Part shown: positions 10,966-13,440 of the stretch, in pieces
Position numbering within the stretch: the stretch's first letter is position 1
How the letters are laid out: every line of letters begins with the position of its first letter
NCBI GenBank assembly: GCA_041483675.1
Contig: JBGPGE010000030.1
Location: 1 to 32,000 of the forward strand
DNA from: Candidatus Binatia bacterium
Lineage (GTDB): Bacteria > Desulfobacterota > Binatia > UBA9968
Reading direction: 5' to 3'
Length of the DNA stretch: 32,000 nt
Position numbers and translations under genes: made by a program
Notes under the pieces: generated by a model
The model's database searches: none
Seen by the model: the letters and a program-made list of their open reading frames with translations, nothing else
What the model was told of the DNA's origin: nothing

Positions 10966-11988
10966 TTGAAAAAGGAGCGGTATAACGTTGCGGTGGTAGG
11001 GGCGACAGGCGCCGTCGGAGAGCAGATGCGCGAAGTGCTCCAGGAGCGGCTGTTCCCCGTCGGTGAGCTGCGCCTGTTGGCTTCGGAGCGTTCTGCCGGC
11101 CAGGTGCTTGAGTTCCAGGGGAAGCATATCCGCGTAGCGGTGCTGCGCGAGGACTCTTTTAACAATATCGACATCGCGTTGTTTTCCGCCGGGGGAACCG
11201 TGAGCGACAAGTTTGCTCCGTTGGCGGTTGCAGCCGGCGCCGTGGTGATCGATAACACCGCTCGCTTCCGCATGGAGTTGGATGTCCCGCTGGTCGTGCC
11301 GGAAGTCAACTCCGGTGAGATCGCCAGGTACAAGAGTCGGGGCATCATCGCCAACCCGAACTGCTCGACCATCCAGCTGGTCGTGGCGCTCAAGCCGCTT
11401 CACGACGCGGCCCGCCTCAAGCGCGTGGTCGTCTCGACCTATCAGTCCGTCTCAGGCGCGGGACGGAAGGCGATGGAGGAGTTGAGCCAGCAGACTGTGG
11501 CGCTGTTCAGCGGCAAAGAACCGAAGAAAGAAAAATTTCCTCATCGGATCGCCTTCAACTGCATCCCGCACATCGATATCTTCTTTCCGGACGGCTATAC
11601 CAAGGAAGAGATGAAGATGATCGATGAGACGCGGAAGATCCTGGACGCGCCGTCGCTTCGCGTGACGGCGACCTGCGTGCGCGTGCCGGTTTTCTGCGGC
11701 CACTCGGAGTCGGTCAACGTCGAGACCGAGAAGAAGCTCACCGCCAAGGAGGTGAAAGCCATCCTTCGCCAAGCGCCGGGGATCTTGCTCTGCGACGAGC
11801 CGGAGAAAAATGTTTACCCCATGCCGCTCGACTCCGTAGGGAAAGACGCGACTCTGGTGGGCAGGATACGCGAGGACGATTCCGTCCCCAACGGCATCAA
11901 CCTCTGGGTCGTCGCCGACAATCTCCGCAAAGGCGCGGCGCTCAACGCCGTGCAAATCGCGGAGATTTTGATCAGGGATTATATCTAA
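10966..11988 (+). CDS. asd: aspartate-semialdehyde dehydrogenase
   Basis: 340 aa with a TTG start after GGGGAGGGG. VAVVGATGAVG.., the active-site motif ..NPNCSTIQLV.. and ..[17 protein letters not shown].. are present. Confidence 0.95.
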   Translation: MKKERYNVAVVGATGAVGEQMREVLQERLFPVGELRLLASERSAGQVLEFQGKHIRVAVLREDSFNNIDIALFSAGGTVSDKFAPLAVAAGAVVIDNTARFRMELDVPLVVPEVNSGEIARYKSRGIIANPNCSTIQLVVALKPLHDAARLKRVVVSTYQSVSGAGRKAMEELSQQTVALFSGKEPKKEKFPHRIAFNCIPHIDIFFPDGYTKEEMKMIDETRKILDAPSLRVTATCVRVPVFCGHSESVNVETEKKLTAKEVKAILRQAPGILLCDEPEKNVYPMPLDSVGKDATLVGRIREDDSVPNGINLWVVADNLRKGAALNAVQIAEILIRDYI

Positions 11989-11998
11989 AAAGGTTCTC

Positions 11999-12190
11999 AT
12001 GATGACTGCTTTGCGCAAGGCCGGACGCAAGAACGCTTCACTGTCGGTCAGCCAACGGCGGCGTCCTCGTCCGTCCCGGATCAAGCCGGCCGCCGTTTCT
12101 CCCTCGACTGCGGCCGGACGGCTCGGCCTCGCCCTGGAACTTTCCGACCTCTGTCTTGCCTTGCGCGACGCCGCGCGCCGGAAGCGGTAA
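11999..12190 (+). CDS. small basic protein (63 aa), possible partner of the downstream nucleotidyltransferase
   Basis: Its stop overlaps the next ATG (TAATG at 12188..12192). It has an Arg/Pro-rich N-terminal part and a C-terminal helix GRLGLALELSDLCLALRDAARRKR. The RBS is weak and it may not be translated. Confidence 0.35.
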   Translation: MMTALRKAGRKNASLSVSQRRRPRPSRIKPAAVSPSTAAGRLGLALELSDLCLALRDAARRKR

Positions 12191-12798
12191 TGGAGCCACG
12201 CTTCGTTCCGGCGCTCGCCACGCTGCGGAAGGTCTTCGAAGACGCCTCGCAATCTCTTCAGGTTCCAATCCATTTTGCCGTGATCGGGGGACTGGCGGTA
12301 TCGACGTGGGGAGCGGTGCGAGCGACCCAGGACATCGATCTCCTGGCCGATAGTGACCCGAGTCCCCTAAGTGACAGGCAATTTCGTGTTCGCTTGCAAA
12401 AGCACTTGGAAGAAGAGGGGTGCGTGGTGGAGTGGCGGGTAGGTGACCCCGACGACCCCATTCCTTTGCTCTTGCACATTGAGTTGCCGCGTCCGGCGCG
12501 TGGCATGGGAGTCGATATCCTCTGGGCTAATAATCGCTGGCAGCGAGAGGCGCTCGTTAGGAGCATATCTCTAAAAGTCTCTCGGCTGGAAGTGTCCGTT
12601 CTCCATCCGGAAGACCTGATTCTCATGAAGCTGGAGGCCGGTGGTCCGCAGGACCTGCTGGATGTGGAGAGGTTGCTTGCCAATCCCCCGACGCAACTGA
12701 ACCTCAGGGGTCTCCGAAACAAGGCCGCAACGCTACGCCTGGCCAGGGTATTAAACAATTGCTTGCGTGGCGCCGGGATGGAACCGAAGAAATCGTAA
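12190..12798 (+). CDS. minimal nucleotidyltransferase-fold protein (MNT/DUF6036-like)
   Basis: 202 aa. IGGLAVSTWGAVRATQDIDLL matches the GG..G..R.T.DxD signature of pol-beta-fold NTases. The C-terminal PEDLILMKLEAGGPQDLLDVERLL is as in NTase components of TA-like pairs. The family name comes from memory. Confidence 0.65.
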   Translation: MEPRFVPALATLRKVFEDASQSLQVPIHFAVIGGLAVSTWGAVRATQDIDLLADSDPSPLSDRQFRVRLQKHLEEEGCVVEWRVGDPDDPIPLLLHIELPRPARGMGVDILWANNRWQREALVRSISLKVSRLEVSVLHPEDLILMKLEAGGPQDLLDVERLLANPPTQLNLRGLRNKAATLRLARVLNNCLRGAGMEPKKS

Positions 12799-12862
12799 CC
12801 GCAAAGGCGCCGCCCTGAACGCCGTCCAAATCGCGGAGATTTTGATCCGGGACTATATTTGA
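12799..12862 (+). pseudogene. duplicated asd 3' end, copy 2 (last 20 codons + stop)
   Basis: 56 of 64 nt are identical to asd 11925..11988. All 7 sense-codon differences are synonymous, the 8th changes TAA to TGA, and both copies encode RKGAALNAVQIAEILIRDYI*. It starts right after the NTase stop codon. Confidence 0.85.
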
Positions 12863-12880
12863 AAGAAACCAGATTTACGG

Positions 12881-13090
12881 TCAGGCTCTACGCGAATCTT
12901 TCCGTTTGGCAATCAGTTGCCGTATCTCGGGGAGGAGGTCCCTCGGTACTTCGATGACGGTTTGAGTGGAGTTCTCAAAAGCGGCCTCGTCTTCCGCCAC
13001 TGCTTCTTCTTCGGTCTGCTGCTCGTAGTGGGCGAGTACCTTCCGTACCCTCTCCTGGTTCCAACCTGATGGAAATTTATTCTGTCTCAT
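12881..13090 (-). CDS. small acidic hypothetical protein (69 aa), antitoxin-like
   Basis: I used ATG 13090, because the track start at 13225 would run into asd copy 3. MRQNKFPSGWNQERVRKVLAHYEQQTEEEAVAEDEAAF..VIEVPRDLLPEIRQLI resembles a widespread small-protein family that I cannot name. Confidence 0.5.
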   Translation of the reverse strand: MRQNKFPSGWNQERVRKVLAHYEQQTEEEAVAEDEAAFENSTQTVIEVPRDLLPEIRQLIAKRKDSRRA

Positions 13091-13198
13091 CCAAGGATTT
13101 CGGGATCGGTGTGAATCACGCTTTTTCGGGCGCCCATAAGACCACCTCCGCAAAGGAGGATAGCACCGGTTCCTCTGGAAATCTAATTGAGGCCTTTT

Positions 13199-13280
13199 CT
13201 GGATCATCGCCGACAATCTCCGCAAAGGCGCGGCGCTGAATACCGTCCAGGTCGCGGAGATACTGATCGGGGGTTATCTG
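13199..13280 (+). pseudogene. duplicated asd 3' end, copy 3 (more diverged)
   Basis: About 68 of 82 nt are identical to asd 11906..11987. It encodes [26 protein letters not shown], compared with [26 protein letters not shown] in asd. It then reads on to a TGA at 13317..13319. Confidence 0.75.
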
Positions 13281-13440
13281 TGGGCTGTATCGCGAGCCTC
13301 ACTCCTAGCTGGAGCCTGAACTAGCAAGATTGCAATGTCTGACCCCCAGGCCAAAGTTGCCGTAGTGCATCCCTGTTTTGGCTGGGCAAGCTCAAATAAC
13401 CTGACTCCAAACATGCTGTGCTCCCCTACGCTGCAGAGGA

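Follow-up and report, generated by a model that had tools for sequence, protein, structure and literature searches.

The stretch analysed here, which we call the window, comprises 32,000 nt (positions 1 to 32,000 of contig JBGPGE010000030.1, assembly GCA_041483675.1) from a Candidatus Binatia bacterium, an uncultured soil bacterium of the class Binatia. Our subject is asd, the gene for aspartate-semialdehyde dehydrogenase, and the array that lies behind it. The gene occupies 10966..11988 on the plus strand and encodes a 340-residue protein (NCBIfam PRK14874, E 6e-155; Pfam Semialdhyde_dh and Semialdhyde_dhC). It is the conserved anchor gene of the locus, and its 3′ end recurs twice further downstream in direct orientation, the three copies being separated by two islets that hold small genes. 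The closest Asd homologs, at 82-91% identity, come under the names Candidatus Binatia/Binatota or 'Deltaproteobacteria bacterium'. Of the proteins of the window, Asd, the GcvT-like protein and LeuB had no identical sequence on record; an exact-sequence look-up of the nucleotidyltransferase encoded behind asd found a match.

An earlier note on this DNA, made from the sequence alone, had described the array as the product of serial insertion of integrase-less islets at an attachment (att) site in a protein gene. We compared the window with related loci (designated by L numbers, with P numbers for proteins and their lineages); the survey rests on one species-level genome scan and about 100 metagenome loci. 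Four contigs, each from a different sample (JGI 3300053057 and 3300052987; Logan SRR29604879 and SRR35962390), contain the array region itself at 99.9-100% identity, and one of these contigs, 15.9 kb long, covers the entire array.

Three copies of the asd 3′ end

Copy 1, the functional 3′ end of asd, spans 11903..11988 (+), of which 11925-11988 is common to copy 2 and 11903-11985 to copy 3. Copy 2 (12799..12862, +) is a displaced but intact asd end that encodes RKGAALNAVQIAEILIRDYI followed by TGA, and copy 3 (13198..13280, +, with a read-through to 13319) is the oldest displaced end and is decaying. A repeat search returned one three-member direct family, with 11903-11982 as reference, 12777-12856 (real similarity from 12799) and 13198-13277, the last being 85% identical to copy 1 over 80 nt, and a degenerate 49-nt tail pattern matched the window three times, at the three copies, and not once in 100 shuffles. 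Repeat search, alignment and pattern thus all bear out the three direct copies that the earlier note had reported, although the similarity between copies 1 and 3 begins earlier than it had noted, at 11903 and 13198, respectively. The copies diverge from one another by 12-15%.

This divergence is of two kinds. Within the repeat, copy 2 differs from copy 1 by seven synonymous and no non-synonymous codon changes, and its stop codon is TGA rather than TAA, exactly as had been claimed. Copy 3 has lost its stop codon and has an altered end, as also described before, but it differs at 7 amino acids over 27 aligned codons, not at four plus one, and its reading frame continues through 12 sense codons to a stop that ends at 13319. 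There is therefore an age gradient in the window, from copy 2, with no non-synonymous change and its stop kept, to copy 3, with seven and the stop lost. The same trend is seen in the related locus L185, where the second and third tails, K2 and K3, show two and five amino-acid changes, respectively (counted from the translation).

Copy 3 and the asd end of L089, the closest relative, share 90.5% identity. Copy 3 retains the 'WI...YL' ending that is found in 78 of the 120 closest Binatia Asd proteins, and the 'WVV...DYI' ending of copy 1 is a rare variant. Since the displaced copy is the one that keeps the clade-typical, L089-like residues, while the working end carries the rare variant, these observations fit an identification of copy 3 as the ancestral end of asd.

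Two further sequence features lie close to the copies. Inside islet 2, GACCACCTCCGCAAAGG (13140-13156) agrees in 15 of 17 positions with GACAATCTCCGCAAAGG, with which the asd tail begins; this could be a fourth, nearly erased tail remnant or a chance resemblance, about 0.5 such matches being expected, by a rough estimate, in an all-against-all comparison of 3.5 kb. In the leuB-asd intergenic region, just before the asd start, 10923-10950 holds a tandem 14-nt AT-rich motif (AATAGAAAATCCAA / AATCGAAAATCCAA). Promoter and terminator scans gave nothing above shuffle expectation.

Cargo of the islets and the downstream slot

Islet 1 (11989..12798, +) is an 810-bp two-gene module. Its first gene, orf63 (11999..12190, +), encodes a small basic protein and overlaps the start of the second (12190..12798, +), which encodes a 202-residue DUF6036/AbiEii-like nucleotidyltransferase. 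The Pfam matches of the latter are to DUF6036 (E 4e-8, 33.6 bits against a cut-off of 23.6) and AbiEii (E 2e-5, 25.1 bits against a cut-off of 22.5), and a profile of its family matches PDB entry 8an4, 'Nucleotidyl transferase AbiEii/AbiGii toxin family protein', with E 1e-3 over residues 25-169. We take 8an4 to be a member of the MenT toxins, which have small antitoxins. The ends of the islet abut the repeats closely: only 10 nt precede orf63, and the stop codon of the nucleotidyltransferase gene touches copy 2. The orf63 protein belongs to no family in Pfam, NCBIfam or PADLOC, and it is conserved in L092, L111, L115 and L137; in the loci compared, a gene of 61-64 codons always precedes and overlaps the nucleotidyltransferase gene. 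Homologs of islet 1 are found behind asd in L090-L096, L100-L107, L180 and L185.

What remains of islet 2 (12863..13197, 335 bp, −) holds a 69-residue gene (12881..13090, −; a gene call in L001) whose product has 861 homologs at 70-91% identity. Neither this protein, nor its 67-residue partner in L185, nor the 71-residue protein of L089 belongs to a family in Pfam, NCBIfam or PADLOC. Relative to L185, islet 2 of the window lacks ~452 nt, the part that holds the upstream 63/67-aa partner gene, and the alignment of the two loci is accordingly split (window 10967-13091 and 13091-13282 against L185 reverse strand 6077-8196 and 8648-8838). Lengths of 810 and 336 bp had been given for the two units and are right, but the 336-bp stretch is not a unit in its own right: because islet 2 of L185 is ~452 nt longer and has a second small gene, we read it as the deletion remnant of a two-gene islet of about 790 bp.

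Behind copy 3, between the ancestral asd end and a gcvT-like gene, lies a variable slot (13283..14311, −) that in the window holds a 268-residue gene (13441..14247, −; Pfam DUF5677, E 0.0014, below its cut-off). The window and L185 cease to be similar precisely where copy 3 ends, and become so again from 14312, 36 nt ahead of the gcvT-like gene. Elsewhere the slot is filled by a 197-residue gene, by two DUF433 genes, by a DUF4160 gene plus two others, or by a zinc ADH (alcohol dehydrogenase) gene. The gcvT-like gene (14348..15499, +) encodes a 383-residue GcvT/DmdA-like aminomethyltransferase (Pfam GCV_T and GCV_T_C; NCBIfam PRK12486 at 397 bits, under the cut-off of 410) and forms the conserved right flank of the locus, being syntenic in L180, L185, L187, L102 and the P0130 lineage.

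Orphan tails as former gene ends

Across the Binatia loci, the displaced tails (hereafter orphan tails) comprise the last 50-99 nt of asd, and the proximal tail is always the functional one. In L180, asd is followed by a nucleotidyltransferase islet and a 79-nt orphan tail with nine synonymous and no non-synonymous differences and the stop codon kept; in L184, it is followed by 774 bp with 75- and 85-residue minus-strand genes and a 99-nt tail with 12 synonymous and no non-synonymous differences, again with the stop kept; and the tail of L105 shows six synonymous differences and one non-synonymous. Pooled over the window, L180, L184 and L105, four lineages chosen after inspection of the data, there are 34 synonymous codon differences and one non-synonymous, and every tail retains its stop codon. 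Duplication within a genome followed by neutral drift predicts ~39-47% synonymous differences, under which the probability of at least 34 in 35 is at most 1e-10 (0.001-0.005 for the window alone).

The intact Asd C-terminus and stop codon, together with the 34:1 synonymous excess, lead us to conclude that the orphan tails were once real gene ends, as had been proposed for copy 2 from its purely synonymous divergence. Moreover, in the window, L180 and L184 there are synonymous differences on both sides of any possible crossover, so both partners in the exchange were working asd alleles of diverged lineages. This synonymous pattern is what the capture of chromosomal DNA from another lineage would predict, and not what would be expected of a long-lived attP borne by an element.

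Occupied and empty loci in other Binatia

Binatia lineages carry one, two or three asd tails, and at least three unrelated cargo modules each have an orphan tail behind them: the MenT/AbiEii-like nucleotidyltransferase with its 63-residue partner, the pair of 69- and 63-residue genes, and the pair of 75- and 85-residue genes found in L184, in which the 85-residue protein has only a weak UPF0150/HicB-like match. L183 has a single tail, and in L102, which has no orphan tail at all, the nucleotidyltransferase module adjoins asd on one side and the gcvT-like gene on the other.

In the near-clonal P0042 population, the Asd protein is identical, asd is 99.1-99.6% identical, and occupied and precisely empty sites occur together. 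In the occupied loci (L090-L097), asd is followed by an 886-bp nucleotidyltransferase islet, an orphan tail of ~50 nt and the flank AAATTTCACC; in the empty ones (L098 and L099), the asd stop codon is joined directly to the same AAATTTCACC flank. The alleles of the two states show fixed differences at asd nt 1009, 1022 and 1023 only, that is, within the last 15 nt including the stop codon (TGA versus TAG), and the empty allele reads as attL in its left part and as attR in its right part, with a 51-nt overlap that aligns to both repeats. Such a pattern is the mark of a reciprocal exchange in which an asd-like sequence came in, or of the reversal of such an exchange, and not of a target-site duplication. 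It also agrees with the earlier proposal that insertions bring a replacement terminus, the occupied alleles differing from both empty ones only in those last 15 nt. Polymorphisms further upstream in asd assort freely between occupied and empty alleles, so that mosaicism of asd, in the form of a donor tract ahead of the repeat, does not discriminate there between homology-facilitated illegitimate recombination and a small-circle crossover. Related loci without an insertion, which the earlier note had suggested looking for, therefore do exist (L098, L099 and L183), and the serial character of the insertions that it proposed is borne out by the decayed state of copy 3 next to the pristine state of copy 2 and by the different cargo bounded by asd tails in L184.

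The array of the window is itself shared. L185 and L186, at 77% DNA identity to the window from asd through the 69-residue gene, contain all three tails with the same copy-2 and copy-3 junctions, and the left junction of copy 2 is identical in L185 and L187. Because a lineage of this divergence has it too, the triple array must be old rather than recent. Between the window and L185, identity reaches 89% in the asd tail, against an average of 77% from asd through the 69-residue gene. Other features are less constant. The right junctions of the nucleotidyltransferase module vary, with repeats of 64, ~50, 79, 72 and 78 nt and spacers of 0, 25 or 50 nt. L185 and L180 are sisters whose LeuA, LeuB, Asd and IlvC proteins are 90-97% identical, but their nucleotidyltransferases are only 71% identical and their junctions and copy numbers differ; conversely, the Asd proteins of L102 and L105 are 83% identical and their nucleotidyltransferases 91%. 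The tail haplotypes are mosaic, the working tail of the window (W1) sharing 'CTC..GTG CAA' with the orphan tail of L180.

In L185, two derived substitutions (TTG AGC) are common to the orphan tails K2 (7902-7961) and K3 (8747-8836, both on the reverse strand) and occur neither in the working tail of L185 nor in the copies in the window, which suggests gene conversion between orphan tails of one genome. Other occupants of the asd hot spot were also encountered: in L089 (1449-1753) and other Binatia, asd is directly followed by a PIN-type toxin-antitoxin pair, and in protein P0120 (422 residues, on a 1724-nt contig) the asd stop is lost and the frame continues into PIN-like sequence, these contigs not reaching far enough for an orphan tail to be seen.

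As a negative control, a general DNA scan with the 48-residue Asd tail matched at least 80 non-Binatia loci, and no duplicated tail was seen among the matches listed; L009, the closest of the non-Binatia matches listed, is not syntenic downstream of asd.

Search for a dedicated recombinase

A Pfam search of the main open reading frames of the window revealed no integrase, resolvase or transposase, the only recombination proteins being the housekeeping RuvC, RuvA and RuvB, and so upheld the earlier statement that the window lacks a recombinase. No recombinase appears in the gene tables of ~25 related loci either; whole Binatia genomes were not part of this search. In viral contigs there was no Binatia-type asd tail, whether sought as a peptide or as a degenerate DNA pattern, and no match to the nucleotidyltransferase profile, and plasmids likewise gave no nucleotidyltransferase match. 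The tail-peptide matches that viral contigs did give (L005-L007) are ordinary asd genes with unduplicated tails, whose downstream flanks were not screened for integrases. One candidate attP, an 18-residue off-frame match at 89% identity in the IMG/VR contig L008 (5551-5620), is antisense and lies at the overlap of two minus-strand phage structural genes; we judged it to be due to chance. A literature search found no paper that links aspartate-semialdehyde dehydrogenase with attB, which is a weak negative. Finally, no tail block is identical across all lineages and there are at least three junction types, so that a constant att boundary was not found.

The asd tail does contain a 9+8-bp imperfect palindrome (11920-11967; AATCTCCGC...GCGGAGATT) with a folding energy of -21.5 kcal/mol (z = -3.85), which arises because the N-L-R and A-E-I codons happen to be mutual reverse complements. 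Over 13 lineages, 73.8% of cells are paired, compared with 72.7% after shuffling, with one compensatory pair and no covariation, and copy 2, which lacks the left arm of the palindrome, folds no better than shuffled sequence (z = +0.37). The orphan tails have their left ends clustered near the left arm of the palindrome; we speculate that the palindrome might be fragile and so favour illegitimate joining. An integron, or a cluster of attC sites lacking an integrase (CALIN), was also considered and rejected: the repeats are homologous asd coding sequence, there is no covariation, and there is no integrase.

Gene-end repeats at other sites

The nucleotidyltransferase module is not confined to asd. 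In ~35-39 of 80 metagenome loci, its homologs (45-63% identical; for example L111 3896-4689) occupy a second conserved site, and only the closest nucleotidyltransferase homologs adjoin asd. This second site is bordered on one side by the 5′ end of geneU, which is on the minus strand, and on the other by the 3′ end of a gene whose product is, judging by its sequence, putatively M24-peptidase-like. In L115, 58-nt repeats of the 3′ end of the M24-like gene (60-117 and 983-1040) flank the module, and repeats of the geneU 5′ end are found in L133 (540-644 and 1609-1713, 105 nt), L137 (415-475 and 1658-1718, 61 nt) and L161 (1-71 and 1173-1243, 71 nt). The gene-end repeats at this second site imply that the phenomenon is not specific to asd.

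A further islet between gene-end repeats lies in the window itself. A perfect 91-nt direct repeat (2743-2833 and 4985-5075) comprises the 3′ 50 nt of a tRNA-Glu(CTC) gene (5026-5100, −) and 41 nt downstream of it, the latter including a hairpin followed by a T-run. The repeats flank a 2.15-kb islet with a TerC-family gene (2945-4021, −) and a PIN/RHH toxin-antitoxin pair (4264-4939, −). No integrase was found in this islet, which makes it the second integrase-less islet between gene-end repeats in the window. A 212-nt repeat at 87% identity (160-371 and 4258-4469) overlaps the PIN gene, and TerC-family paralogs at 470-1417 and 2945-4021 share a 134-nt stretch at 72% identity; by these similarities, the leftmost part of the window resembles an older form of the tRNA-Glu islet cargo, duplicated in part.

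Elsewhere in the window, a single open reading frame (29309-30598) encodes an unusual protein, in which a response-regulator receiver domain is fused to LpxC (UDP-3-O-acyl-GlcNAc deacetylase), and is preceded by a gene for an NtrY-like histidine kinase (27035-29281).

Discussion

We consider it somewhat better than an even bet that the asd arrays arose by RecA-type capture of foreign chromosomal fragments, anchored by homology in the asd tail, with displacement of the C-terminal coding end and with the newest insertion next to asd. On this account, DNA of a related lineage, carrying its own asd 3′ part and a downstream cassette, would enter the cell and recombine through the highly conserved asd tail by means of the host's homologous-recombination machinery only, either by a Campbell-type single crossover of a circularised fragment or by homology-facilitated illegitimate recombination, whose illegitimate joint would fall within the resident tail. 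The incoming tail would become the working gene end, and the resident tail would be pushed downstream together with everything behind it. The orphan tail could then serve as a short right-hand homology arm that lets the cassette enter any Binatia genome, whatever follows asd there, which would explain why the same module stands before different genes (an amidohydrolase gene and truA in P0042, the gcvT-like gene here). Recombination between the repeats would remove an islet precisely. For the window, the order of events would have been an ancestral end (copy 3) before the slot, then insertion of the islet with the 69-residue gene, then that of the nucleotidyltransferase islet, and then the 452-nt deletion in islet 2. 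Dependence on host RecA-type functions without a dedicated recombinase is what we infer from the loci as a whole, and the toxin-antitoxin-like cargo probably stabilises the islets by counter-selecting their loss.

Several observations weigh against this account. The identical blocks available for exchange are short (21 nt in the window, 26 nt in P0042 and 23-32 nt elsewhere) in repeats that diverge by 10-14%, and blocks of 21-32 nt are at the lower limit for RecA-type exchange, where it would be inefficient. In the window and in P0042 the identical block is at the same place, asd nt ~987-1008, as a fixed site-specific core would give, and the left ends of the orphan tails fall within ~35 nt (codons W-I-V-A-D-N-L-R-K) rather than being scattered along asd. 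The synonymous excess comes from lineages that were selected with the data in view, and other tails are decayed, with synonymous and non-synonymous differences of 10 and 6 in L107, 1 and 4 in L090, and 4 and 5 in L104. Read from the alleles, the P0042 polymorphism would fit insertion and repeat-mediated deletion alike. The presence of the triple array in lineages of 77% identity means that the pattern is partly vertical and that the preservation of copy 2 needs gene conversion or re-exchange. An integrase might, moreover, be encoded elsewhere in Binatia genomes.

The main rival is that a site-specific recombinase of the tyrosine or serine type, its gene lying elsewhere in the genome or on a helper element, acts in trans on islets that are minimal integrative elements, or remnants akin to cis-mobilizable elements (CIME), whose attP mimics the asd 3′ end. 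We regard this as possible but distinctly unlikely. It would account for direct repeats of a target 3′ end, for restoration of the gene and for sites that are precisely empty or occupied, as well as for the common position of the identical block in the window and P0042; the left parts of the orphan tails of P0042 and L104 carry non-synonymous changes (ALDS / ALHS), as a never-translated arm of an element would, and elsewhere in the window a tRNA-Glu 3′ end, tRNA 3′ ends being classical integrase targets, is repeated perfectly over 91 nt around an islet that has no integrase. Yet neither the window, nor ~25 loci, nor viral contigs supplied a recombinase; junction, repeat length and spacer all vary, and no block is identical across all lineages. 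An untranslated attP arm should gain non-synonymous changes, whereas the differences in the window, L180 and L184 are synonymous on both sides of any crossover. Three unrelated cargo modules would need one attP, and the same module is found between repeats of other genes at the second site. On these points, and with a hairpin that lacks covariation, the framing of the earlier note, in which the asd tail was an att site comparable to those of CIME and of integrative and conjugative elements (ICE), is not supported. The stronger form of the idea, in which the asd tail is a true attachment site for integrase-less islets of 0.3-0.9 kb, each with a replacement end, that are moved in trans by an unseen Binatia recombinase, is more doubtful still. 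Were it true, the islets would be among the smallest integrative elements known, and the tRNA-Glu islet and the gene-end repeats of the second site would be explained too.

It is improbable that the arrays are instead a fixed ancient structure, in which one or two old insertions are inherited vertically, the tails are kept asd-like by gene conversion from the functional tail or by a selected function of their own, and the empty sites are repeat deletions. The window, L185 and L187 do have the triple array and its junctions in common at 77% DNA identity, the K2/K3 substitutions point to conversion within a genome, Asd and nucleotidyltransferase identities correlate overall (r = 0.64), and the empty alleles are exactly those that repeat-mediated deletion would give. 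Conversion from copy 1, however, would yield identical copies whose later changes were mostly non-synonymous, yet all but one of the 35 are synonymous; junctions come in at least three types, one lineage has no repeat, L184 carries different cargo behind asd, and cargo and housekeeping proteins are incongruent in opposite senses in L185/L180 and L102/L105. We give very little credence to a self-moving module, in which gene termini would receive the 0.8-kb unit through the action of the nucleotidyltransferase or of its small basic partner, with target duplications of 50-105 nt. Such a module would be expected between long repeats of several targets, as is indeed seen for three (the asd 3′ end, the M24-like 3′ end and the geneU 5′ end), and with ends that closely abut the repeats; but the three fixed differences in the last 15 asd nt of occupied and empty alleles largely refute target duplication, the copies differ by 10-14% with all differences synonymous, the cargo of L184 and islet 2 have the same kind of repeat without a nucleotidyltransferase, most second-site copies have no repeat, and the closest solved relative is a toxin, not a recombinase. 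A structure-specific site, whether attC-like or another single-strand hairpin target with the layout of a cassette array, is hardly credible: the tail of the window does fold (z = -3.85) and the left ends of the orphans cluster at the left arm, but pairing is not maintained in 13 lineages, copy 2 has no left arm, the homology is that of coding sequence, and there is no integron integrase. As for collapse or expansion of repeats during assembly, an alternative that the earlier note had raised, we think it can be dismissed for practical purposes. Some contigs do break at or near the repeats (the short contigs L003 and L004 begin at window position 11920, and L003 stops at 13236), but four independent assemblies agree, the copies are 12-15% apart, and the diverged L185 lineage has the same three copies.

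Capture and displacement anchored in the asd tail has its closest known parallels at polymorphic-toxin loci. Displacement arrays, in which C-terminal ends are displaced sequentially, have been described at the effector-immunity loci of the Vibrio cholerae T6SS (type VI secretion system), where they are attributed to homology-facilitated illegitimate recombination (Kirchberger et al. 2017, PMC5361080), and at rhs loci (Jackson et al. 2009, as cited in PMC5361080). Like asd, the rhs, orphan cdiA-CT/cdiI and T6SS arrays have a conserved gene body, a functional 3′ end that is proximal, and distal orphan ends in the same orientation, each still with the genes that used to follow it; the unit acquired last is the proximal one, integrases play no part, and joining through a homologous anchor together with illegitimate or short-homology joining has been proposed. 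The asd arrays share the age gradient as well, and both partners in their exchanges were functional alleles. Unlike those arrays, asd encodes an essential biosynthetic enzyme, its tails are isofunctional copies of an invariant C-terminus with synonymous differences only, not variable toxin domains with cognate immunity genes, its cargo consists of separate small genes rather than a fused toxin domain, and its orphan tails are only 50-99 nt long.

Recombination by host functions alone is known to produce such layouts. In E. coli, single crossovers of circular molecules that duplicate 109-950 bp are the commonest outcome and outnumber homology-facilitated illegitimate recombination (PMC3240628), a process described by de Vries & Wackernagel 2002 and Prudhomme et al. 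2002, as cited in PMC2884548. Like the asd arrays, these events place an insertion between duplicated homologous segments with hybrid junctions and need only host functions; they are laboratory events with duplications of 109-950 bp, whereas the asd loci are natural and repeated and have tails of 100 nt or less. In the literature searched we found no description of the natural, repeated use of a gene tail of at most 100 nt across a whole bacterial class.

Other systems are similar in part. Streptococcal CIME/ICE accretion takes place at the 3′ ends of protein genes, such as the fda site of ICESt1/ICESt3, by means of a tyrosine integrase, the att core being fixed and the boundaries constant. 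It resembles the asd arrays in its tandem units, direct 3′-end repeats, units without an integrase and restoration of the gene by the incomer, but at the asd loci no integrase was found, the boundaries vary, and the units are of 0.3-0.9 kb rather than several kilobases or more. The minimal mobile elements of Neisseria are cassette slots between conserved genes that are exchanged by transformation and homologous recombination. The slot between copy 3 and the gcvT-like gene is like them in its sharp boundaries and its different genes per lineage; they leave no duplicated gene ends, unlike the asd insertions that precede the slot. Islet 1, for its part, resembles MenAT and AbiE modules in its DUF6036/AbiEii and 8an4 matches and in the small gene that overlaps the start of the nucleotidyltransferase gene. 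The 63-residue partner falls into no recognisable family and is not of the AbiEi antitoxin type; islet 1 is a putative toxin-antitoxin system.

If the asd arrays did arise by homology-anchored capture, displacement arrays would not be confined to polymorphic-toxin loci, an essential and conserved biosynthetic gene could be the homology anchor, and small selfish or defence-type cassettes could stack behind such a gene without an integrase. The orphan tails would then be dated scars, from pristine to decayed, and may also be portable homology arms that make a cassette transferable between genomes that are unlike downstream of the anchor. For annotation, short in-frame copies of a gene end behind housekeeping genes would be a marker of integrase-independent islets in uncultured phyla, islets of a kind that island finders keyed to integrases or tRNA genes would miss. 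With identical blocks of 21-32 nt in repeats that are 86-90% identical, the asd locus of the Binatia would furthermore be a natural data set on the minimal length and maximal divergence of homology that permit exchange.

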